14,417 nucleotides of DNA, taken from the UHGV virus genome UHGV-0099904; one strand, 5' to 3'. A program made the translations under genes and the position numbers. The first letter of the stretch is position 1; every line of letters begins with the position of its first letter. Source of the DNA: a virus. Below, piece after piece: positions 15 through 14,090 of the stretch. Below the pieces are notes generated by a model. It was not told the origin of the DNA and did no database searches. It saw only the letters and a list, made by a program, of their open reading frames with translations.

Positions 15-3000
15 ATGAACCTGTTAATCACCTCAGTGGATGGTGATAAAACCGCTGGCGCGGCGTCAGTGAATATTGGTGAATTCTACCAGGTAACTAT
101 TCAGCAGCGTAAGGATATTTCTCTTGCACTTAGCGCAGGTAAGAAATATGCAATTGTGCTGAAGGGAAGATACCTCCTTGGAGAAGATTCTTATCAGGTT
201 AATACCGCGTCACATATTCATGCGGCTGAATTTGTTGCCAGAACCTATACCGATTCATATCAGTTAGGAGATGGGGAACTGCTTGTTTGTACGGTGAATA
301 TCCCTGCTGGCGTATCTGCTATTACTAAGGAAATGATAGATGTATCCGACCGCATCGATCTCGCGATAGGCATTGAAATTTCCGACTCTGTAACCAGTAC
401 CAGAAGTGATGTCGCTGCAAGTTCGCTGGCGGTTAAAAAAGCCTACGATCTGGCTAAAAGCAAGTATACGGCGCAGGATGCAAGCACAACACAAAAGGGA
501 TTAGTTCAGCTCAGTAGCGCAACTAACAGCGACAGCGAAACAATGGCGGCTACCCCTAAAGCCGTTAAGTCTGTAAAAGAGCTGGCTGATACCAAAGCGC
601 CAATAGAAAGCCCGAGTCTGACAGGAACGCCAACCGCGCCGACGGCAGCGCAAGGTACAAACAGCACGCAGATCGCAAATACAGCCTTTGTTAAGGCAGC
701 TATAACGGCACTTATCAACGGTGCACCTGGCACACTGGATACGCTTAAAGAAATAGCGGCTGCGATCAATAACGACCCGAATTTCAGCACAACTATCAAC
801 AATGCTCTGGCTCTTAAAGCTCCTTTAGCAAGTCCTGCATTAACGGGAATACCTACTGCGCCTACCGCTGTACAGGGTACGAATAACACGCAGATTGCTA
901 CGACCGCTTATGTAAGAGCTGCTATCTCTGCATTGGTCGGCTCATCACCTGAAGCTCTTGATACCCTGAATGAGCTTGCAGCAGCACTGGGCAATGACCC
1001 GAACTTTGCGACAACAATGACAAATGCGCTGGCAGGCAAACAGCCACTTGATGCAACTTTAACCGCGCTTGCTGGTCTTGCGACAGGCGCAAATAAATTG
1101 CCGTACTTTACCGGTACAGACACTGTTTCTCAGACTGACTTAACGTCAGTCGGTCGCGATATTCTGGCCAAAACAAGCGTTCTTGCTGTTATCCAATACC
1201 TTGGTTTAAGAGAACTCGGTACCAGTGGTGAAAAGATCCCCCTGTTGAGCACGGCTAACACATGGAGTGCGCGCCAGACTTTCAACGGAGGGATCACCGG
1301 GGCGCTGACAGGGAACGCCGACACCGCGACGAAATTGAAAACAGCACGCACGATTGGCGGTGTGGCATTTGATGGCTCGGGCAATATCAATCTTCCAGGT
1401 GTAAATATAACAGGTAACCAGAACACCACGGGGAATGCTGCTACCGCGACAAAACTTGCGACGGTAAGAAACATCAACGGTGTTAAGTTTGATGGTTCTG
1501 CGGACATTTCGATACCAACAATTACGTCCAGAGGGCGTGTTACTGCGCTCACCGGTACAACACAAGGTGCTGCTACTGGATTGCAGATGTATGAGGCGTA
1601 CAACAATAGCTACCCGACCACGTATGGCAACGTATTGCACATGAAAGGTGCGAGTGCTGCTGGTGAGGGCGAGTTGCTTATTGGCTGGAGTAGTACGAGC
1701 GGTGCACATGCGCCGGTTTTCATTCGCTCCCGAAGAGATCACACTGATGCGGCATGGTCAGCGTGGGCGCAGGTATATACATCAAGGGACTCCATTCCTG
1801 GTGTGAATGCCACTGGCAATCAGAATACAACTGGCAATGCAGCAACCGCTACAAAACTACAGACGGCAAGAACTATCGGCGGAGTTAGCTTTGATGGTAC
1901 TGCGAATATTAATTTACCTGGTGTTAACGTTGCGGGTAATCAGAATACATCCGGTAACGCGGCTACAGCGACCAAGTTACAAACCGCGAGAACTATAAAT
2001 GGGGTGTCGTTTGACGGTTCTAAAAACATTGAGCTAACTCCAAGGTCTATAGGCACGATCAACTCTACAACCATGTCTTTTATTGGTGGTGCAGGATGGT
2101 TCAAGCTGGCAACTGTAACCATGCCACAGGCCAGTTCCGTGGTTTACATAAGTCTGATTGGTAGTTCTGGATATAATGTTAACTCCCCTATGCAGGCTGG
2201 TATATCTGAACTTGTTCTTCGTGCGGGAAATGGGAATCCAAAAGGTCTTACTGGTGCGTTATGGCGACGGACATCGGTTGGATTTACTAATTTTGCATGG
2301 GTGAATACATCCGGTGATACCTATGATGTTTATGTTGAAATAGGTAATTACGCCACTGGTGTAAATATCCAGTGGGATTATACCAGTAACGCCAGCGTAA
2401 CGATTCATACATCACCAAATTACACAGTAGATAAACCAACTGGTCTTACTGATGGAACGGTATATGTCATTTACAGTTCGCACATTAAACCGACCGCCAC
2501 GGATGTCGGCGCATTACCAATAACCGGAGGAAATCTCAACGGCGGTTTAACGGCTACTGGTGAGATCGTTTCAAGATATGCAAATGGTTTCCGCATTGCC
2601 TATGGAAGCTACGGATTCTTTATCCGAAACGATGGTTCAAACACATATTTCATGTTGACCAATTCGGGTAACAGCCTGGGAACCTATAATAATTTAAGGC
2701 CGCTTATCATTAACAATGCCAATGGTACTGTTACGATCGGTAATGGGCTCAATGTTACTGGCGGCATCAATGGTAGTTTGAACGGCAATGCTTCAACGGC
2801 TACGAAGTTGCAAACTGCTAGAAAAATAAGCGGCGTGTCTTTTGATGGTTCTGCTGATATAACACTAACAGCTGAAAATGTATCTGCTTTTGCTCTACGC
2901 GCTACTGGAACTTATGCCGATACTAGTGGTGCGGTCCCGTGGAATGCCGAATCAGGTGCGTATAATGTTACACGCTCCGGGGATTCTTATATCGTTGCAA

Positions 3001-4034
3001 ATTTTTATACAGGCGTAGGTAGTTGTCGGACTCTCCAAATCCGAGCGCACCATAAAAATGGTGGATTGTATTACCGTTCATCACGTGATGGCTATGGGTT
3101 CGAAGAGGGCTGGGCTCAGATATATACTAAAAAAGACAGCATCCCTGGTGTGAATACAACTGGTAATCAGAACACTACTGGCAATGCTGCAACTGCAACA
3201 AAACTGCAAACAGCACGCACAATAGGCGGAGTGTCATTCGATGGTAGTGCCAATATCGACCTGCCGGGCGTGAATAAAGCAGGTAATCAGAGCACTACCG
3301 GTAATGCCGCAACCGCAACGAAACTACAGACTGCACGCACTATCAACGGTGTTCAGTTTGATGGTTCTGCAAATATTACTTTAACTGCTGCTAACCTTGG
3401 CCTGAGCGATTCAAGCGGATATGTTGGGCGTTTGGTGAATACCCGGGTTTTCACTTCATCAGGTACGTATACCCCAACCCCAGGAACAAAACGGATCAGG
3501 GTCACAATAACGGGCGGCGGTGGCGGAGGGGGCGGCTGCAAGGCTATATCCAATAATGAAACGTTTTTCGGTGCTGGCGGCGGGGCAGGTGGGACAGTAA
3601 TCACCACGCTGATCCTGACGAAGGATAGTTATCCTGTCACTATCGGCGCAGGTGGGGCCGGCGGCGTTAGTGCGACGACCGGCCTCAAGGGCGGTGATAG
3701 CTCGTTCGGATCGGTAATAGCCCCTGGTGGTGAAGGTGGCGGGAAAGTGGGAGTTACAAACACAAACGGCGGTAACGGCGGTGTGCCAAGTACTGGCGGT
3801 ATCAACATCATTGGTGGACATGGAGGCGACGGTCAGTCCGGAAATATCGGCGTCAGCGGTGAAGGCGGAACATCGTACTGGGGGGGCGGTGGACGCGCAG
3901 GCGCTGGCGGTGGTGTTAGTGGTAAGGCATATGGTTCAGGTGGCGGTGGCGCATACGATGCCGGTTATAGCGGAACCAGTATGACGGGCGGGAAAGGTGC
4001 TGCTGGGATTTGTATTATCGAGGAGTTTGCATAA
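15..4034 (+). CDS. Phage tail fiber protein, 1339 aa; the frame has no upstream stop before the window edge, so the true N-terminus may lie upstream
   Basis: Single 4 kb ORF. Translation shows hallmark tail fiber motifs: KGLVQLSSATNSDSETMAATPKAVK near aa 160-185, PTAPTA..GTN.TQIA.TA(F/Y)V shaft repeats, repeated GNQNTTGNAATATKLQTARTIGGVSFDGSANI units, and a Gly-rich C-terminus. A tail fiber assembly gene follows with a TAATG stop/start overlap. Confidence 0.9.
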   Translation: MNLLITSVDGDKTAGAASVNIGEFYQVTIQQRKDISLALSAGKKYAIVLKGRYLLGEDSYQVNTASHIHAAEFVARTYTDSYQLGDGELLVCTVNIPAGVSAITKEMIDVSDRIDLAIGIEISDSVTSTRSDVAASSLAVKKAYDLAKSKYTAQDASTTQKGLVQLSSATNSDSETMAATPKAVKSVKELADTKAPIESPSLTGTPTAPTAAQGTNSTQIANTAFVKAAITALINGAPGTLDTLKEIAAAINNDPNFSTTINNALALKAPLASPALTGIPTAPTAVQGTNNTQIATTAYVRAAISALVGSSPEALDTLNELAAALGNDPNFATTMTNALAGKQPLDATLTALAGLATGANKLPYFTGTDTVSQTDLTSVGRDILAKTSVLAVIQYLGLRELGTSGEKIPLLSTANTWSARQTFNGGITGALTGNADTATKLKTARTIGGVAFDGSGNINLPGVNITGNQNTTGNAATATKLATVRNINGVKFDGSADISIPTITSRGRVTALTGTTQGAATGLQMYEAYNNSYPTTYGNVLHMKGASAAGEGELLIGWSSTSGAHAPVFIRSRRDHTDAAWSAWAQVYTSRDSIPGVNATGNQNTTGNAATATKLQTARTIGGVSFDGTANINLPGVNVAGNQNTSGNAATATKLQTARTINGVSFDGSKNIELTPRSIGTINSTTMSFIGGAGWFKLATVTMPQASSVVYISLIGSSGYNVNSPMQAGISELVLRAGNGNPKGLTGALWRRTSVGFTNFAWVNTSGDTYDVYVEIGNYATGVNIQWDYTSNASVTIHTSPNYTVDKPTGLTDGTVYVIYSSHIKPTATDVGALPITGGNLNGGLTATGEIVSRYANGFRIAYGSYGFFIRNDGSNTYFMLTNSGNSLGTYNNLRPLIINNANGTVTIGNGLNVTGGINGSLNGNASTATKLQTARKISGVSFDGSADITLTAENVSAFALRATGTYADTSGAVPWNAESGAYNVTRSGDSYIVANFYTGVGSCRTLQIRAHHKNGGLYYRSSRDGYGFEEGWAQIYTKKDSIPGVNTTGNQNTTGNAATATKLQTARTIGGVSFDGSANIDLPGVNKAGNQSTTGNAATATKLQTARTINGVQFDGSANITLTAANLGLSDSSGYVGRLVNTRVFTSSGTYTPTPGTKRIRVTITGGGGGGGGCKAISNNETFFGAGGGAGGTVITTLILTKDSYPVTIGAGGAGGVSATTGLKGGDSSFGSVIAPGGEGGGKVGVTNTNGGNGGVPSTGGINIIGGHGGDGQSGNIGVSGEGGTSYWGGGGRAGAGGGVSGKAYGSGGGGAYDAGYSGTSMTGGKGAAGICIIEEFA
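597..1040 (+). repeat. Tandem duplication of a ~74-aa shaft module inside the tail fiber gene (aa 195-268 and 269-342)
   Basis: APIESPSLTGTPTAPTAAQGTNSTQIANTAFVKAAITALINGAPGTLDTLKEIAAAINNDPNFSTTINNALALK versus APLASPALTGIPTAPTAVQGTNNTQIATTAYVRAAISALVGSSPEALDTLNELAAALGNDPNFATTMTNALAGK. The protein copies are clearly related while the DNA differs at many codon third positions. Confidence 0.8.
1299..1514 (+). repeat. First pair of ~40-aa TATKL fiber repeats (aa 429-500)
   Basis: TGNADTATKLKTARTIGGVAFDGSGNINLPGVN followed by ITGNQNTTGNAATATKLATVRNINGVKFDGSADISIP. Confidence 0.8.
1791..2036 (+). repeat. Second pair of TATKL fiber repeats (aa 593-674)
   Basis: IPGVNATGNQNTTGNAATATKLQTARTIGGVSFDGTANINLPGVNVAGNQNTSGNAATATKLQTARTINGVSFDGSKNIEL. 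Confidence 0.8.
3141..3383 (+). repeat. Third pair of TATKL fiber repeats (aa 1043-1123); a single copy also lies at about 2769-2867
   Basis: IPGVNTTGNQNTTGNAATATKLQTARTIGGVSFDGSANIDLPGVNKAGNQSTTGNAATATKLQTARTINGVQFDGSANITL. Near-identical in protein to the 1791-2036 copy, with many synonymous DNA differences. Confidence 0.8.
3492..4031 (+). repeat. Glycine-rich C-terminal tip domain of the tail fiber (aa ~1160-1339); GGN-rich low-complexity DNA
   Basis: Runs GGGGGGGG, GAGGGAGG, GAGGAGG, PGGEGGG, GGNGG, GGHGGDG, GEGG, GGGGRAGAGGG and GSGGGG alternate with short non-Gly segments. Includes a G7 homopolymer at 3880-3886. Confidence 0.75.
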
Positions 4035-4444
4035 TGAATGCGTCATATGCAGTTATTGAAAATGGGATGGTTGTGAATGTCATTGTCTGGGATGGCGAGG
4101 CTGAATTCACAGTGCCGGATAATCAGCAGCTCATTAATATTTCTGATATCAGTGAGCAGCCCGGAATCGGCTGGGTGTATTCAGACGGGGGATTTACTGC
4201 ACCACCCACTCCGGAACGTTCTCATGATGAACTGGTAGCTGACGCTGAACAGAAAAAACAGTCGCTGATTGATACCGCAATGGCTTCCATTAGTCTTATT
4301 CAACTGAAATTACAGGCCGGGCGGAATCTTACGCAGGCTGAAACCACCCGTCTTAACGCTGTGCTGGATTATATCGATGCGGTGACCGCAATGGATACCA
4401 GCACTGCACCAGATGTCAATTGGCCAGCGTTCCCGGAGGCGTAG
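4034..4444 (+). CDS. tfa: Tail fiber assembly protein (lambda Tfa / P1 U-like chaperone)
   Basis: C-terminal DTSTAPDVNWPAFPEA closely matches the lambda Tfa C-terminus as I recall it (DTSTAPDIEWPAVP). AGGAG at 4021-4025 sits 8 nt before the ATG at 4034, which overlaps the fiber TAA. The ORF-track start at 4010 is a TTG and is less likely. Confidence 0.9.
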   Translation: MNASYAVIENGMVVNVIVWDGEAEFTVPDNQQLINISDISEQPGIGWVYSDGGFTAPPTPERSHDELVADAEQKKQSLIDTAMASISLIQLKLQAGRNLTQAETTRLNAVLDYIDAVTAMDTSTAPDVNWPAFPEA

Positions 4445-4588
4445 TCCATTTAATAAAATATCTGGATCGCTGGAAGCATCGACTGGTTCCAGTGCGTCCG
4501 GATAATCGAGCTACAAGTTATCAGATGATTACCGTTCATGCCTCAAGAGTGAGCGCATGCTGCACCCACGCAAATTTAACTTTCATAC

Positions 4589-4642
4589 GACCAGAGTTTA
4601 CCTATCAAAAGCCTTTTTCACTCTGGTCGTTCAGCCTTTTTT
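4589..4642 (+). terminator. Candidate terminator or operator: 9-bp perfect inverted repeat GACCAGAGT/ACTCTGGTC with a 22-nt spacer, followed by a T6 run
   Basis: Arms at 4589-4597 and 4620-4628; TTTTTT at 4637-4642. It lies about 145 nt after the tfa stop. The loop is long for a classical intrinsic terminator. Confidence 0.3.
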
Positions 4643-4724
4643 CCACTCGCCTTGTCCTCAAAAATTAGCTCACATCCTGCGCTTTCAAGAGCGTTTCGTT
4701 GTAAAGCAGTGTTTTGTTCATTTG

Positions 4725-4752
4725 TTGATACGCGTACATAGCCTATTAGCAT
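4725..4752 (+). promoter_or_regulatory. Weak sigma70-like promoter candidate (TTGATA, 16-nt spacer, TAGCAT) in the AT-rich spacer upstream of the lyd/dar block
   Basis: Hexamers read directly from sequence in a 435-bp noncoding AT-rich region that precedes a long co-directional operon. A phage late-activator-dependent promoter is equally possible and I cannot place it by eye. Confidence 0.2.
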
Positions 4753-4879
4753 ATTTTCTGCTCACTATCGTTATTTATAGCAAGCTGCGGATTTTAATTA
4801 ACAAAAACCAGTATGTGTGGAAATCACAAAGTACATACCGTTTCCCAATGATATTTAATTCACTATTAAGGAAATAGTT

Positions 4880-5161
4880 ATGTGTGATTTCACAATAATG
4901 CTCCTCTCCATCCTTGGCGGGGTGCATTCGTTTCTGAATGGGGTTCGTGAAAAACGTTACGAAGCGTCATGCAGGCAATTGATGGCCGAGTGTATTGCTG
5001 CCGTACTTGCAGGCTTTATAGGCATGTATTTCGCGGAATATAAGGGTATGGATGAAAGTCTTCAGAATTGCGTGACTATTATTTGCAGCATCAATAACAG
5101 GCTCATTCTTGAAAAGTTACAAAGGATTATCGATTCGTACCTCAATAGAAATGCCTCTTAA
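4880..5161 (+). CDS. Small two-TM membrane protein, holin-like; paralog of the downstream LydA-like gene
   Basis: AAGGA at about 4868-4872 sits 8 nt before the ATG. Hydrophobic segments at aa 5-20 and 33-51. Aligns with the 5229-5558 product (LLSILGGVHSFLNGVRE versus LLSVIGGIGTFLMDVRD, with shared AV.AG, I.S.N and S.LN positions). Confidence 0.55.
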   Translation: MCDFTIMLLSILGGVHSFLNGVREKRYEASCRQLMAECIAAVLAGFIGMYFAEYKGMDESLQNCVTIICSINNRLILEKLQRIIDSYLNRNAS

Positions 5162-5202
5162 GCAACAAATGACCGGTTGAGAAGTTACTTTGCATACCAT
5201 TA

Positions 5203-5222
5203 CCTCCTGACAACGTAGGAGG
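5203..5222 (+). promoter_or_regulatory. Stem-loop CCTCCT-gacaacgt-AGGAGG that pairs the Shine-Dalgarno of the following holin gene with an upstream anti-SD
   Basis: 6-bp perfect complement; the AGGAGG arm at 5217-5222 is the only SD for the GTG start at 5229. Confidence 0.3.
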
Positions 5223-5228
5223 GAACTT

Positions 5229-5558
5229 GTGCTTGACACACAGGAATTAGCTCCAGTTGCTATTGCGCTCCTGCTTTCAGTAATTGGTGGGATAGGCACG
5301 TTCCTGATGGATGTCCGAGACGGTCGCCAGTCTGGCAATTTGTTGGGATTGGTTACGGAGATCTTTGTTGCAGTGACAGCTGGCGCGGTGGCGTACCTAT
5401 TGGGGCAACACGAGGGCTGGGAGTTATCAATTACGTACTTAATGGTAACGATAGCCAGCAATAACGGTCATGAGGTGATTTCAGGGATGAAACGAGTGAA
5501 TATCGATAGCATTCTGAATGTTCTTACAAGTTTGGTGAAAAAGGGAGGCGGGAAATGA
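5229..5558 (+). CDS. lydA: Holin (P1 LydA-like), 109 aa, GTG start
   Basis: Two to three hydrophobic helices (APVAIALLLSVIGGIGTFLM, LLGLVTEIFVAVTAGAVAYLLG) and a charged C-terminal tail (KKGGGK). It sits immediately upstream of the dar-like block, as lydA does in P1. Its stop overlaps the next start (ATGA). Confidence 0.55.
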   Translation: MLDTQELAPVAIALLLSVIGGIGTFLMDVRDGRQSGNLLGLVTEIFVAVTAGAVAYLLGQHEGWELSITYLMVTIASNNGHEVISGMKRVNIDSILNVLTSLVKKGGGK

Positions 5559-5998
5559 TTGGCTGGGGTGTATGCGTTCTTGCGTTAGCCTTAGCCGATC
5601 GCTATTTGCTAAAACGCAAGGACATCACGCATTTAGAACTTGGTGATGTGGAAATTAAACCGGGTTTCATCCGGGTGCCGTTCAAGTACCGGTCTAAATT
5701 CCCGTTTTTGCGCGGCGCAACGGTCAGATATTGGATCCGCGATGTTCAGAAGCCGACGACAGTGATTGAAGGTGAACAACGTTGTCTGACGTCGGCTGAA
5801 CAGGGCGAAAACAGTGAATGGTTGTACATACCCACTGAATATATGGGTAAAGGAGAGCGACTGTGGCATTTCAACGTCATGGTTACGCATGGCGACTCGT
5901 TCATTAACCCGTTGTATCGGATTTTCCCTGTTACTCAGCAAATCCGCAGAAGTTACGTAATAAATCTCGCACAGGATGTGTCAGATGACGAAAAATAA
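5555..5998 (+). CDS. lydB: Signal-anchored protein, 147 aa; candidate holin antagonist (P1 LydB-like)
   Basis: AGGGAGG precedes the ATG. N-terminal hydrophobic segment MIGWGVCVLALALA. Position between the holin and the hdf/darA block matches P1 gene order as I recall it. Function is inferred from synteny only. Confidence 0.45.
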   Translation: MIGWGVCVLALALADRYLLKRKDITHLELGDVEIKPGFIRVPFKYRSKFPFLRGATVRYWIRDVQKPTTVIEGEQRCLTSAEQGENSEWLYIPTEYMGKGERLWHFNVMVTHGDSFINPLYRIFPVTQQIRRSYVINLAQDVSDDEK

Positions 5999-6587
5999 GT
6001 ATGCAACGGTCGATTTTGACCAGGTTAATGAAAAGGGGCTGAAATCCCTTATCGCGGCGATCAATAAAACCGGTGTTACGGTAATTGAGGTTGACTCCAG
6101 CAACCGCGCAACAACGAAAGATGGCGTTAAAGTTAAAACCGCAAAGCTGGTTCTTAACGACGGACAAATTCTTGCCATACAGGTAAACGATACTGGCGAT
6201 ATATCGTCTGTGAAACTGAATGGAAAAGCTATTCCTAACGCTCAGTCGCCGGATATCAAGACGCTTGGTACCGTCATGGGACAGGCGGCCCGCAAAAACT
6301 CCGCAAAATTCCAGAAATCACTGATCGCCAAAGCGAAGCGTGTTGCCAATCCGGTAGACAAGAAACCGGCAGTTAAATCCAACTTTCAGCGCCTGCAAGA
6401 AGCAAAACAGCGGAATGCTCAGGTGGTTGCCGCTTATAAGTCCGCGCAGAATTCGGTGTCTTTCAATCAACAGCAGATCACTGATTTGCGGGCGAAGCTG
6501 GATAAGGAGACGGGCCGACTCAATAACGAAAAGGCACGGAATGGCGAACTCAAACGTCGTCTTAAGCAACTGAAAGCAGGAAATTAA
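5976..6587 (+). CDS. hdf: Hdf-like virion/head-morphogenesis protein, homologous to the middle of the downstream DarA-like protein; the start may be the second ATG at 5985
   Basis: Shares LNDGQILAIQ / LSDGQTISIL and ...KNSAKFQ... segments with the 6589-8508 product, followed by a K/R/Q-rich predicted coiled coil. The stop is 1 nt before the next ATG. Confidence 0.55.
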   Translation: MCQMTKNKYATVDFDQVNEKGLKSLIAAINKTGVTVIEVDSSNRATTKDGVKVKTAKLVLNDGQILAIQVNDTGDISSVKLNGKAIPNAQSPDIKTLGTVMGQAARKNSAKFQKSLIAKAKRVANPVDKKPAVKSNFQRLQEAKQRNAQVVAAYKSAQNSVSFNQQQITDLRAKLDKETGRLNNEKARNGELKRRLKQLKAGN

Positions 6588-6588
6588 C

Positions 6589-8508
6589 ATGGAACAGTTA
6601 AATATCAATAAAGGGGTGACGATCAAGCCTGGGCTTGACGTGCTTCCCCCGCCAGTGACTGATGATGAATATCGCGCATTAATGGCCGGTGAGGACCGCT
6701 ATCTGATGACGGAATCCAACACCCTGGAGGAAATCGAGGCTACGTTCTTCTATGACACGCCGATCCACTGGTGTGCTACGGATTTACTGGAGGCGATTAG
6801 TTCTACTCGTTTGCAGTTACACCGGACCATGCAGGCATTTGTCCGGGCATTGAACCAGAAGCTGAATGGTACCGGAATCTCTGCGGGGAGTGATAAAACG
6901 GGGGAGGTGGCCCAGAGCGGCGCGCGCGCGATCGGCGGTGCTGAAATTGGCCGGGCACGTAACGTTAACGGGCTGCCGGTCCTGCCAGCCATTATTCCGC
7001 TCAGTGATGGTCAGACTATCAGCATTCTGTTTCATAGCCCGACAGCGGAAAACCGGATCACCAATAGCGATACGCTGGTTGCTTTCCAGTTCTTACTGAA
7101 TAAAAAAGACGTTACTCACACCGTTGCTCCGATGAGTGGACGTGATATGACGCTGGCGCAGGTCACCATGAAACTTGCCAACCTTGCAGAGAAAAACTCG
7201 GCAAAATTCCAGCGTGCGCAGAAGAAGAAAAAAGCCCTGGTTGATGAAATAACCCAACTACAGGCTGACAGTGACCAGAAAGAGGATGCCATGAGCGACC
7301 TCGCGGATCAGGTGGCAGCGGTAGAAGGGCAGAAGGTAGATCTGGAGCAGAAAATTAACGCTGTTGCATCGGAAGCGGATTCTCTTTATGAAGAGAATGA
7401 GCGTTTGCAGACGGAGATTGATCAGCTCAATCGCACAGGTGGGCGCGATACCATTGATCCAGCGGGGATGACTGGTGGGCACTCGCGCGCGCTGACGGAT
7501 CGCCTTGCCAGTATCAAAAATCGTATGCATATGAACGGGGAAGTGACGCTCAGTAATGGAGCATCAATGAAGCAATTCATTGAGGACGGCGAAGGGTATA
7601 TCCAGTTAACCGATTCGGATGGCAGCGTGTACATGATCAAGGCTAAATCCATACAGGGTGTGGACATGGCAGATGCGATCGGCAAGCTGTTTAAAGCCTA
7701 TAAAGCGGGTAATGTATCGGAATATCTGGTCCAACCAGAAGAACATAAACCGGAAAACGTCGAACCTGAACCAGCGGAGGATACCGGTAGCTCTTCGCCT
7801 GAACCAGAAGTCTCTGTAGGTGCATATCGATATGCCTTGCAAATGCGTCCGGCGGCCCCTGGCGCAATACCTGAAGGTAACAAAGCAATTCTGCCGCGCC
7901 CTGATGAAGGTGACCCGTATTATGAATATGCACGCTACGGCATTGCTACTTACGATACCCCGCTTTCTGATCAGCAAATGAGTGAGTACGACCTGAAGTT
8001 ATTGCCTCGCGAGGATTCTTTCGACTTCCTGGCGAAGACACTTACTAATGGTCCGTTTGGCAAATATGCACAAAAAGCTCTGGATCTGGCCACCAGCTCA
8101 CCAGACGAGTTCCGCGTAATGCTGAAAACTCAGTTTCAAAAAACTTTCCCCAATATTGCGTTTCCGGGGGGCGCTGGCACCGAGAAAATGGTGCAGAGCA
8201 TGATCAATGCATTGCAGGCCGAAGTCGGTGAGATTACTCAGCCAGAACCTGCCCCGGCACAGCCTGATGAAACGGTTAGCGAAGCAGATGCAGAGGCTAA
8301 TAAAGCCATTGAATATCTCAATAACGTGATGGATATGCAAAGCACTGACATGGCGGAGATCCGTAACGCCCGGGGTAATGTCCGGGAAGCGATTGCAGCC
8401 CTTCAGGCTGCCGGGCGTTTTGAGGAAAACGAAGAGCTGGTTAATGGCGCTGCTCGCCACCTGGCTGATCTGCTGGTAGCAATCCAGAAAGCGGGGGTAG
8501 CGGCATGA
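6589..8508 (+). CDS. darA: DarA-like antirestriction and capsid morphogenesis virion protein, 639 aa
   Basis: AGGAAA RBS. Large protein with a central coiled coil (QLQADSDQKEDAMSDLADQVAAVEGQKVDLEQKINAV...) and acidic Pro/Glu-rich linkers. Size and position (hdf, 639-aa protein, 121-aa protein, 995-aa protein) match my recollection of the P1 darA operon. ATGA overlap with the next gene. Confidence 0.6.
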   Translation: MEQLNINKGVTIKPGLDVLPPPVTDDEYRALMAGEDRYLMTESNTLEEIEATFFYDTPIHWCATDLLEAISSTRLQLHRTMQAFVRALNQKLNGTGISAGSDKTGEVAQSGARAIGGAEIGRARNVNGLPVLPAIIPLSDGQTISILFHSPTAENRITNSDTLVAFQFLLNKKDVTHTVAPMSGRDMTLAQVTMKLANLAEKNSAKFQRAQKKKKALVDEITQLQADSDQKEDAMSDLADQVAAVEGQKVDLEQKINAVASEADSLYEENERLQTEIDQLNRTGGRDTIDPAGMTGGHSRALTDRLASIKNRMHMNGEVTLSNGASMKQFIEDGEGYIQLTDSDGSVYMIKAKSIQGVDMADAIGKLFKAYKAGNVSEYLVQPEEHKPENVEPEPAEDTGSSSPEPEVSVGAYRYALQMRPAAPGAIPEGNKAILPRPDEGDPYYEYARYGIATYDTPLSDQQMSEYDLKLLPREDSFDFLAKTLTNGPFGKYAQKALDLATSSPDEFRVMLKTQFQKTFPNIAFPGGAGTEKMVQSMINALQAEVGEITQPEPAPAQPDETVSEADAEANKAIEYLNNVMDMQSTDMAEIRNARGNVREAIAALQAAGRFEENEELVNGAARHLADLLVAIQKAGVAA

Positions 8509-12208: not shown

Positions 12209-13303
12209 TCACGAGAAGCTTTTTTCTGATGTCAGCCAACAGTGCTCGTGCAAATCTCTTGGTGGTTTTTCGACAAATGCCTCTTCAGCCACATCCTGCC
12301 AGGGGATTTGTTTAGCCCATTCAGCTATAGCGTTATGGTTTGCCGAGAATAACGGTATTGTATAGGCCTTCAGCCAGTCTAATGTGCTGGAGTTGTGTTT
12401 TTGAGCGTGATGTTTCGCATGGTGTTTGGCGATCACGATCGTAGGCACTACCCATTTACTACCGTCAGTCATTGTGAAGTGCATATTACGGGGAACAGAT
12501 GACTTTTCCATCAACTCCCGAATCCCGGGAAATTTCCCCAAGATCAATCGGCGATATTCATCGCTATTGCGCCCACCAAACTCTTTGGCTTTGAATTCAA
12601 GATATGCTTCAGAAACGAGAGGTGAATCCTCTGTGTTTAGAGTTAGCGCCGTGAAAAAACCAGCAGGATTGTTTTTACTATGGGCCAACCGGTGATGCGA
12701 ATCATAAAAGTACCCTTTCTCGCGTTCCGATGGTTTCGACAGCAACAGCAGGCGCGAGTCATAATTGGTTAAATTGCCAGTTATCACTGCATGAGCGCGA
12801 TCGCTGATTTCCGCCGAGTTAATAACGATGAAAAGATCGTGCGGTCCAGTAAAACCAGCCAGAGACTCTTCGTTATTCAGACAATAGGTTATATAGACGC
12901 ATCCCCATGTTTCACTGATATGCACCAACCCTTTGTCAGGGTGTATTCTGAAATAATTGCCAAGAAAAGGGTGTTTTTGGGTAACTCGCTCCCAATAACG
13001 GAACATATAGTCAATTATTGTTTTTCGACTATCGTTAATCGCAGGAGAAACAACCACTGTACGGGAACACGAATACAGTATTGTTTGCAGGATGCTAATC
13101 ACTGCCACAATAGAGGTTTCCCCAATACCATGTGGTGTGGTGGCAGTGACTTTGGCTCCGGTGTTCTTTATCGCGTTAATAATTTTTGCTTGATGAGGTG
13201 TTAACTCAATATCAAGCAACTCTTTTGCTGCCAGTTCCCAATTGTCTTTATACCGTTCTATCAGTGCTAACCAGGCAGATTCATTCTGTATACGATTAAT
13301 CAC
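12209..13303 (-). CDS. Terminase-large-subunit-like ATPase-fold protein with degenerate Walker A and B motifs, 364 aa
   Basis: LTPHQAKIINAIKNTGAKVTATTPHGIGETSIVAVISIL...RTVVVSPAINDSRKTI...DLFIVINSAEIS parallels the T4 gp17-type N-terminal ATPase (YQ..., RQLGKTTVVA..., IYIDECAF) as I recall it, but with GETS in place of GKT and NSAE in place of DE. Overlaps the upstream gene by 8 nt. Confidence 0.55.
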   Translation of the reverse strand: MINRIQNESAWLALIERYKDNWELAAKELLDIELTPHQAKIINAIKNTGAKVTATTPHGIGETSIVAVISILQTILYSCSRTVVVSPAINDSRKTIIDYMFRYWERVTQKHPFLGNYFRIHPDKGLVHISETWGCVYITYCLNNEESLAGFTGPHDLFIVINSAEISDRAHAVITGNLTNYDSRLLLLSKPSEREKGYFYDSHHRLAHSKNNPAGFFTALTLNTEDSPLVSEAYLEFKAKEFGGRNSDEYRRLILGKFPGIRELMEKSSVPRNMHFTMTDGSKWVVPTIVIAKHHAKHHAQKHNSSTLDWLKAYTIPLFSANHNAIAEWAKQIPWQDVAEEAFVEKPPRDLHEHCWLTSEKSFS

Positions 13304-14090
13304 TTTCCACCTCTTCCGTGGTGTTTTCTTGCAGTTCTGTTAATGCAGCACGACATAGGTTCCGGGCATTGGCTATAGCCACACTTTTGACTTCATCCGT
13401 CATCGTGCAGGTAATGTACTGATCGAGTTCTTCAGCGCGGATGATGCTTTTGCCAATCAGAAACTGTATTTGCCAGAGCAGATCGGCATCCATAATCAGA
13501 ATTTCTGCCGGGCCTTCAGGACCAGCCGGGAAGGAAACATAAGACTGTTTGCCCAGGCCGATAACTCGACAACTTGCTTCAAGAATTGCGCGATTGAGGT
13601 CTGACTTTGTAACTGAAACAGGTTGATTTTCACCTGCGATTACGCCGTTGACATGGATGTGGAATGGCATGTAGCTTGAAATTCGCTCTACTTTCCATAC
13701 GCCAGCAAGCGATCCTTCATGCAGCACAATGGGGGTAACCGCGAGTTTCATCTCACCATATAACTGCTGGCAGATAGCTGGATTGCTGAATACATCCAAA
13801 GGTTCACACTCAAACAGCGGCGCAATCTGTATGAGGTCCATCATGGTCATACCAGGGGTACGAGCAGTAATGAATCTGCGCATGCCAGTATCCATTGTGC
13901 GCCAGATAGCTACACCATGCTTTTTGCTCACTTCTTCAGTAAAGCCAAGGTGGCACATGATGGTTTTTTCGATAGCCAGATCAGAGATAGAAACCTTTTC
14001 GCCAGGTACACCATCATTATTGATGGTCACTTCTACACTCTGGCCATTACGCAGGCGGTATTGAATGGTTTTAGTATTTTGTGCTGTCAT
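13296..14090 (-). CDS. Hypothetical protein, 264 aa, co-transcribed with the terminase-like gene
   Basis: Long ORF with a plausible weak RBS (GAGAAAAGA) before the ATG. Ends inside the start of the next gene. I see no recognisable motifs. Confidence 0.55.
   Translation of the reverse strand: MTAQNTKTIQYRLRNGQSVEVTINNDGVPGEKVSISDLAIEKTIMCHLGFTEEVSKKHGVAIWRTMDTGMRRFITARTPGMTMMDLIQIAPLFECEPLDVFSNPAICQQLYGEMKLAVTPIVLHEGSLAGVWKVERISSYMPFHIHVNGVIAGENQPVSVTKSDLNRAILEASCRVIGLGKQSYVSFPAGPEGPAEILIMDADLLWQIQFLIGKSIIRAEELDQYITCTMTDEVKSVAIANARNLCRAALTELQENTTEEVESD

Follow-up and report, generated by a model that had tools for sequence, protein, structure and literature searches.

The stretch of DNA analysed in this work (the window; 14,417 nucleotides of the virus genome UHGV-0099904) was found to be ~99% identical in nucleotide sequence, between positions 4614 and 6700, to bacteriophage P1 and likewise to numerous P1-like phage-plasmids. 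Genes and promoter were assigned by comparison with the P1 reference annotation (AF234172, AJ000741), with coordinates converted as window = L001 + 3113. It is essentially certain that the locus is lydC - LPdar - lydA - lydB, which heads the dar operon in a P1-like phage-plasmid. The P1 annotation of this arrangement is reportedly due to Lobocka 2004, and Schmidt 1996 is also said to be a source for the system. The genes of the locus are:

4880-5161, + strand: lydC, ATG start, 93 aa; 99% nucleotide identity to annotated P1 lydC, matches to PF16083 and phrog_1527
5229-5558, + strand: lydA, GTG start, 109 aa, main holin; match to P1 and to PF16083
5543-5548, + strand: Shine-Dalgarno (SD) sequence of lydB, GGGAGG, 6 nt ahead of the lydB ATG
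5555-5998, + strand: lydB, LydA antagonist (antiholin); full-length match to PF16084 (E = 8e-104) and P1 annotation
5976-6587: hdf, by synteny with P1 and a DarA_N match (E = 1e-21)
6589-8508: darA, from the annotated P1 records

The lydA gene is followed directly by the overlapping lydB (the lydB ATG overlaps the lydA stop as ATGA), then by hdf and darA, which is the same synteny as in P1. Gene order, late promoter, the hairpin described below, the GTG start and the ATGA overlap are all identical in P1 and the window, while residue 23 of LydC is Arg in the window and Cys in the P1 reference. LydA is 100% identical to that of Salmonella phage SJ46 and 99% identical to that of P1; in SJ46, lydA has ATG at the codon that is GTG in the window. 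The preliminary description of this DNA was exact in all its statements about the sequence, namely an ATG open reading frame at 4880-5161, a GTG open reading frame at 5229-5558, CCTCCT at 5203-5208 and AGGAGG at 5217-5222.

The homology to P1 breaks off at ~4614, at a remnant of the cin invertase gene (4618-4752, minus strand; region 4445-4752), in which the first 43 codons are followed by a stop. A tail-fibre gene (15-4034) and a Caudo_TAP tail-fibre assembly gene (4031-4444) lie on the + strand in fixed orientation, pointing at lydC. Given the cut cin gene and the fixed tail-fibre genes, inversion of the C segment has probably been lost in this element; the same arrangement was common to five IMG/VR loci (e.g. 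L012). The tail-fibre reading frame (1339 aa) contains several internal repeats (NQNTTGNAATATKLQTARTIGGVSFDG...), and its C-terminal region is unusually glycine-rich (GGGGGGGG..., GAGGGAGG...). After ddrB, two overlapping minus-strand reading frames, 12209-13303 (364 aa) and 13296-14090 (264 aa), occupy the region where P1 has hxr and IS1. Neither gave a match in Pfam or PADLOC; their families are phrog_5902, weakly similar to phrog_2 (terminase-large-like), and phrog_2326, respectively, neither of which has an assigned function.

The two small proteins are related. BLASTP of LydC against LydA gave 32% identity over 84 aa (E = 1e-14), both scored above the gathering threshold of 28.4 bits for the LydA holin family PF16083 (Phage_holin_3_3; 31.1 bits for LydC and 30.1 bits for LydA), and both matched the 'holin' family phrog_1527 (E = 5e-40 and E = 4e-49, respectively). 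Kyte-Doolittle profiles with 19-residue windows showed hydrophobic segments at ~1-22 and 29-53 of LydC and at ~4-30 and 36-60 of LydA, and two transmembrane helices were also predicted for each of P1 LydA and LydC by Bednarek 2022 (PMC9025707). LydC and LydA are paralogous two-helix class II holins. Experimental holin activity has been reported for P1 LydA and LydC, with which the proteins of the window share 99% identity: cloned lydA and lydC are each lethal and are toxic even when uninduced, and each protein supports lysis with the canonical lambda R endolysin, which indicates that both are true holins (PMC9025707). The claim of tandem paralogous holins with two hydrophobic segments each thus agrees with the alignment, the family match, the hydropathy profiles and the genetics of P1. 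The pair itself was already known, since it has been annotated and genetically dissected in P1.

It had further been suggested that the two genes form a holin/antiholin-like pair. This part was not supported, because inactivation of lydC in P1 makes lysis later, not earlier, and because the antiholin of P1 is LydB, the product of the next gene (PMC9025707). LydA is the main holin of P1 in liquid culture; lydC is regarded as monocistronic and assigned a putative early promoter, and lydA-lydB are expressed from a late promoter (PMC9025707). When the genes were silenced by CRISPRi in P1, the efficiency of plating was 1.1 for lydC (no effect on plating), 0.12 for lydA and 0.023 for lydB (PMC10695390). 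The lack of a polar phenotype for lydC fits an expression of lydA-lydB that is independent of transcription through lydC. A dual start of the lambda type, with in-frame starts separated by 1-3 codons and products distinguished by an N-terminal positive charge, was also considered for both genes and rejected. LydA begins with MLDTQE and has no second start. LydC begins with MCDFTIM, but several alleles (MFDLTIFF) lack Met7, and the N-terminal extension ahead of Met7 carries no positive charge.

The region between lydC and lydA carries the following elements:

5182-5190, + strand: LPdar -22 box, AAGTTACTT (P1 annotation AF234172, AJ000741; window sequence identical)
5192-5196, + strand: 5' strand of an outer helix, GCAUA, which pairs with UGUGC at 5228-5232 across the GUG start (5 bp)
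5195-5200, + strand: LPdar -10 hexamer, TACCAT (P1 annotation; window sequence identical)
5203-5209, + strand: 5' arm of the hairpin, anti-SD CCUCCUG (sequence and fold)
5216-5222, + strand: 3' arm of the hairpin with the lydA SD AGGAGG at 5217-5222 (sequence and fold)
5226-5244, + strand: weak hairpin CUUGUG/CACAGG holding the GUG start (-5.3 kcal/mol), in both transcript classes

The complementary hexamers CCTCCT and AGGAGG are separated by 8 nt (GACAACGT), and the GTG of lydA follows at 5229, 6 nt past the SD. In the whole window, AGGAGG occurs once and CCTCCT twice. ViennaRNA predicted that 5203-5209 pairs with 5216-5222 through six Watson-Crick pairs and a closing G-U pair, leaving a loop of 6 nt, with a free energy of -10.7 kcal/mol; this 7-bp hairpin was the centroid structure in every context folded. 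Together with A5202, the 5' arm reads ACCUCCU, which is the sequence of the 3' tail of 16S rRNA. Including the outer helix, a two-tier structure of -15.3 kcal/mol was obtained from 44-nt folds of three P1-like relatives, L006, L067 and L049, whose sequence here is the same as that of the window. In RNA spanning -120 to +40, the SD core of lydA had a probability of being unpaired of 0.00. The lydA start codon was unpaired with a probability of 0.02, and the mean over the -15 to -5 region of lydB was 0.61. A role of the hairpin as terminator or attenuator was rejected, as it has no U-tract, and an Rfam scan of 4400-6000 with E up to 1 returned no family. The text of Bednarek 2022 (PMC9025707) contains neither 'hairpin' nor 'secondary structure'; a mention in Lobocka 2004 or Schmidt 1996 is possible.

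A feature missing from the preliminary description is LPdar, the Lpa-dependent late promoter of P1, which by identity with the annotated element sits in the 67-nt gap between lydC and lydA. The sequence AAGTTACTT-TGCA-TACCAT at 5182-5200 is identical to LPdar, a promoter by annotation. LPdar has the layout of its promoter type, a 9-bp near-palindrome ~22 bp upstream of the start, followed after 4 nt by a -10 hexamer and without a -35 element, and the layout of LPlyz, the second late promoter inspected, is the same (9-mer, 4 nt, hexamer). The hairpin's 5' arm (5203-5209) begins 3 nt past the end of the -10 hexamer at 5200. A start of the sigma-70 type usually lies 7 ± 1 nt after the -10 hexamer, which corresponds here to 5206-5209, and placing the centre of the 9-mer at -22 puts +1 at 5208. 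From this geometry we infer that transcription from LPdar starts at ~5207-5209, in or just past the 5' arm. A mapped 5' end of LPdar was not found in the searchable literature, to which the primary mapping papers do not belong. With the -10 hexamer ending at 5200, a sigma-70-type start should not lie upstream of ~5205, so that the late mRNA would not contain the 5' arm in full. A possible role as a 5'-terminal stabiliser of the mRNA was dismissed for the same reason, as the position of the -10 hexamer rules out a start upstream of the stem.

If transcription starts at ~5207-5209, the late lydA mRNA would be without the CCUCCU arm and unable to form the hairpin, which would then be possible only in RNA begun upstream of LPdar. 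The outer GCAUA strand lies inside the promoter and would likewise be present only in such read-through RNA. By computation, opening the SD (5216-5223) costs 9.3-11.7 kcal/mol if the RNA begins at 4880 or 5100 and 3.7-4.4 kcal/mol if it begins at 5207-5210, and the probability that the SD is unpaired was 0.00 in the read-through RNA versus 0.33 in the late RNA. The late leader was predicted to be only partly open, owing to pairing with GCUCC at ~5250. The leader of the lyz operon is ~80 nt and is not comparable to that of lydA. No terminator-like site was predicted between the lydC stop and lydA, and read-through is therefore possible. Op(lydC) is annotated in P7, but the C1 operator consensus was not found anywhere in the window when up to 3 mismatches were allowed.

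The conservation of the segment was inspected in ~85 P1-like loci, which came from IMG/VR, from phage records and from one genome (a scan of genome contigs gave 4 loci only). The sequence from the -22 box to the GTG was invariant, apart from three singletons and one junction at a contig end. The singletons are the ATG start of SJ46, an A-to-T change at 5224 in L067 and A5202C in L049. The last is the one stem-adjacent variant, and it adds a base pair (-20.8 vs -15.3 kcal/mol). The hairpin segment does not vary in the P1 clade and hence offers no covariation. The contig-end junction is in L078 (1-57; IMGVR_UViG_2597489893_000001), where ACCTCCTG is preceded by unrelated sequence without the late promoter; the homology stops precisely where the hairpin begins on its 5' side, which could be a rearrangement or an assembly artefact.

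The sequence immediately upstream of the invariant segment is mosaic. The mosaic junction lies at ~5169-5175, just upstream of the -22 box of LPdar (loci L005-L091), with LydA at least 98% identical throughout. The state of lydC could be scored in 80 loci:

P1-type lydC: 31 of 80 loci
87-aa type lydC: 22 of 80 loci
P7-type lydC: 11 of 80 loci
no lydC: 16 of 80 loci

The three LydC allele types, the 93-aa P1-type with many substitutions, the 87-aa type and the 94-aa P7-type, are mutually divergent. The gene of the accessory holin LydC is an exchangeable cassette that evolves fast. The hairpin was unchanged beside all three allele types and in the loci without lydC, which indicated that it is independent of the adjacent paralog.

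Outside the P1 clade, the situation varied with the lineage. The closest outgroup consists of Cronobacter phage JK004 and Salmonella Newport plasmids, with LydA identities of 72.6-73.4% (tblastn); JK004 and the near-identical Newport plasmids were the only members of the 60-80% identity class found in plasmids. At the position of LPdar, JK004 and one Newport plasmid have AAAGCACTT-N4-TAACAT. The hairpin is absent from JK004 and the Newport plasmids, though the late promoter and the GTG are conserved there. The GUG...CAC pairing of the weak 5226-5244 hairpin is kept in these relatives and overlaps conserved Thr-Gln codons. Compared with shuffled sequences, occlusion of the SD was significant in two of seven lineages, and was not significant in the JK004/Newport, D6-like, Citrobacter, Pantoea and Vibrio relatives (five of seven); SD occlusion as a family-wide trait was rejected on this count.

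An SD-occluding hairpin of unrelated sequence, CCCUUCUG-N16-CAGGAGGG, was found in an Enterobacter lineage (L089, 1105-1146, and L099; plasmids NZ_CP085744 and NZ_CP074151) ahead of a distant lydA homologue of 36% identity. Its folding energy is -11 to -13 kcal/mol, and none of 200 shuffles was as good. The 5' arm is found immediately 3' of a late-box-like motif, TAAGTT, and precedes the best -10-like hexamer, TAACGT; it occupies the spacer of the putative late promoter. The SD-occluding hairpin is thus lineage-specific and recurrent, not universal. In phage D6 (L004, 1430-1490) and in the D6-like elements L096-L098, there is a long-range complementarity, GGAAATAACA ... TGTTATTTCT in D6, flanked by a CCU/AGG extension; the stem encloses a putative late promoter and reaches the lydA SD, and the divergent cin gene shares this intergenic region. 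It was rejected as an equivalent of the P1 hairpin, since the occlusion was not significant and the promoter geometry is unclear.

A GTG start with a strong G-rich SD was observed in most LydA homologues of the various lineages (at 5229 of the window and in L003, L086, L088, L089 and L092-L094), and ATG in the D6-like and Vibrio relatives and in SJ46. The prevalence of this combination among LydA homologues suggests selection for weak initiation of the holin.

In the model of the preliminary description, the hairpin would act in the working lydA mRNA, where it would limit LydA and thereby fix the ratio of LydC to LydA and the time of lysis. A stable hairpin does cover the only SD of lydA, the weak GTG start is itself held in a small hairpin, as if low initiation had been selected, and each P1 holin affects lysis timing (PMC9025707). 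But LPdar lies between the two genes, and with its -10 hexamer ending at 5200 the late mRNA would not carry the 5' arm in full. A setting of the ratio is also disfavoured by the fact that lydA has this late promoter of its own, by the persistence of the hairpin without lydC and beside three divergent alleles, by the plating efficiency of 1.1 under CRISPRi of lydC, and by the role of LydC as an accessory holin, not an antagonist. We consider this explanation quite unlikely. Still more improbable, in our judgement, is a site acting at the DNA level, where CCTCCT-N8-AGGAGG at +1 of LPdar would bind a dimeric regulator or modulate promoter escape. The inverted repeat does overlap the predicted start of a regulated promoter. 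Against it, one arm is an SD at canonical spacing from the start codon, neither LPlyz nor the homologous JK004/Newport promoters carry such a repeat, and the window holds no C1-operator-like sequence. We know of no P1 regulator with a CCTCCT-N8-AGGAGG site.

A more serious rival, since the hairpin is not universal, is that the repeat arose by chance and is without function: a strong consensus SD and its complement, in the discriminator or initially transcribed region of the promoter, would be 8 nt apart by coincidence, and the conservation would reflect the near-identity of P1-like elements. The evidence on chance was mixed, being non-random for lydA itself and not so across the window. When the upstream 100 nt were dinucleotide-shuffled, none of 200 sequences sequestered the lydA SD as fully, and the coincidence is also rare in view of the single AGGAGG and the two CCTCCT in 14.4 kb; when the 34-mer was shuffled, 3 of 200 folded as well as the hairpin. 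Across the window, 34 perfect 6-bp hairpins with loops of 3-10 nt were observed (8 of them with at least 4 G/C in the stem) versus ~28 expected, and with ~12 genes the chance that one such hairpin falls on the SD of some gene was roughly estimated at 10-15% for a window of this length. The P1 clade has no variation and hence no covariation, Rfam gave no match, and the absence from JK004/Newport despite the conserved promoter and GTG, with occlusion not significant in five of seven lineages, also favours a fortuitous repeat. On the other side, the 5' arm is exactly astride the predicted late start, as at gene e of T4, an independent equivalent with a different sequence exists in the Enterobacter lineage, and the only nearby polymorphism, A5202C, lengthens the stem. 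A fortuitous origin is doubtful on balance, and yet it deserves to be taken seriously.

The gene of T4 lysozyme, e, offers a precedent for another reading. Its early read-through transcripts sequester the ribosome-binding site in a helix (McPheeters 1986, reviewed in PMC3014915), and the T4 late promoters are embedded in the DNA that specifies the 5' strand of this helix, so that translation is possible on the late transcripts; soc, 49 and I-TevI are arranged alike (PMC3014915). By the predicted start of LPdar, P1 would resemble T4 in that the SD of a lysis gene, in P1 together with its GUG, pairs with a stretch located at the late start or upstream of it, and only transcripts from the late promoter should have a free ribosome-binding site. 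In the RNA initiated upstream, the helix computed for P1 has -10.7 kcal/mol, or -15.3 kcal/mol with the outer helix. The two systems differ in phage, in promoter (an Lpa/sigma-70 -22 box versus T4 gp55) and in protein (holin versus endolysin). The resemblance, on the P1 side a computed one, would be one of mechanism and not of homology.

A second point of comparison is gene S of lambda, which has the sdi stem-loop and yields both the holin S105 and the antiholin S107, as translation of the one gene begins at either of two in-frame starts separated by two codons. An RNA structure at the initiation region of a holin gene is proposed to tune lysis timing there, as it was in the preliminary description of the present locus. 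Unlike S, lydA has a single start without a dual-start motif, and its antiholin is the unrelated soluble protein LydB.

On these grounds, a role for the hairpin in limiting LydA synthesis is plausible, most likely on a transcript class other than the late mRNA. We tentatively propose, with a confidence that stays somewhat short of even, that the inverted repeat is a transcript-specific translational insulator of lydA against read-through RNA. The identity of the genes, the annotated position of the promoter and the computed structures and opening energies are shown here, whereas the precise transcription start, RNA reading through from upstream and any effect on translation are inferred. RNA begun upstream of LPdar, at the lydC promoter or by other read-through, would carry the ACCUCCU arm and the outer GCAUA strand. 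These would pair with the SD and the GUG of lydA and block ribosome binding, and the lethal LydA would not be made early or in the lysogen. Once Lpa switches on LPdar, transcription would start at ~5207-5209, inside or just after the 5' arm, giving a late mRNA with a leader of ~21 nt in which AGGAGG is largely free (predicted partly open), and LydA would be made. It may be speculated that read-through RNA could still give the antiholin LydB through its own accessible SD. The toxicity of cloned lydA and lydC even when uninduced (PMC9025707) provides a selective reason for such insulation.

Stated more fully, the idea is of an anti-SD embedded in the promoter, a copy of the 16S tail between -10 and +1, by which read-through would yield LydC and LydB and not LydA, LydA would come only from Lpa-driven late RNA, and the Enterobacter equivalent would have an independent origin. 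In this extended form the insulator is possible, and we hold it with a little more reserve.

As the gene pair adds nothing new, the hairpin is the remaining point of interest at this locus, and it may be viewed as a plausible regulatory detail. If the proposed insulation of lydA is true, a construct for P1 or phagemid engineering that contains lydA with its upstream 30 nt or a foreign promoter would be expressed very unlike the native late transcript. It would also explain how a plasmid prophage silences a toxic holin despite transcription from a variable upstream region, and it would extend the principle of T4 gene e, a late promoter inside the helix that occludes the ribosome-binding site, to a phage that is temperate and transcribes its late genes by another system.
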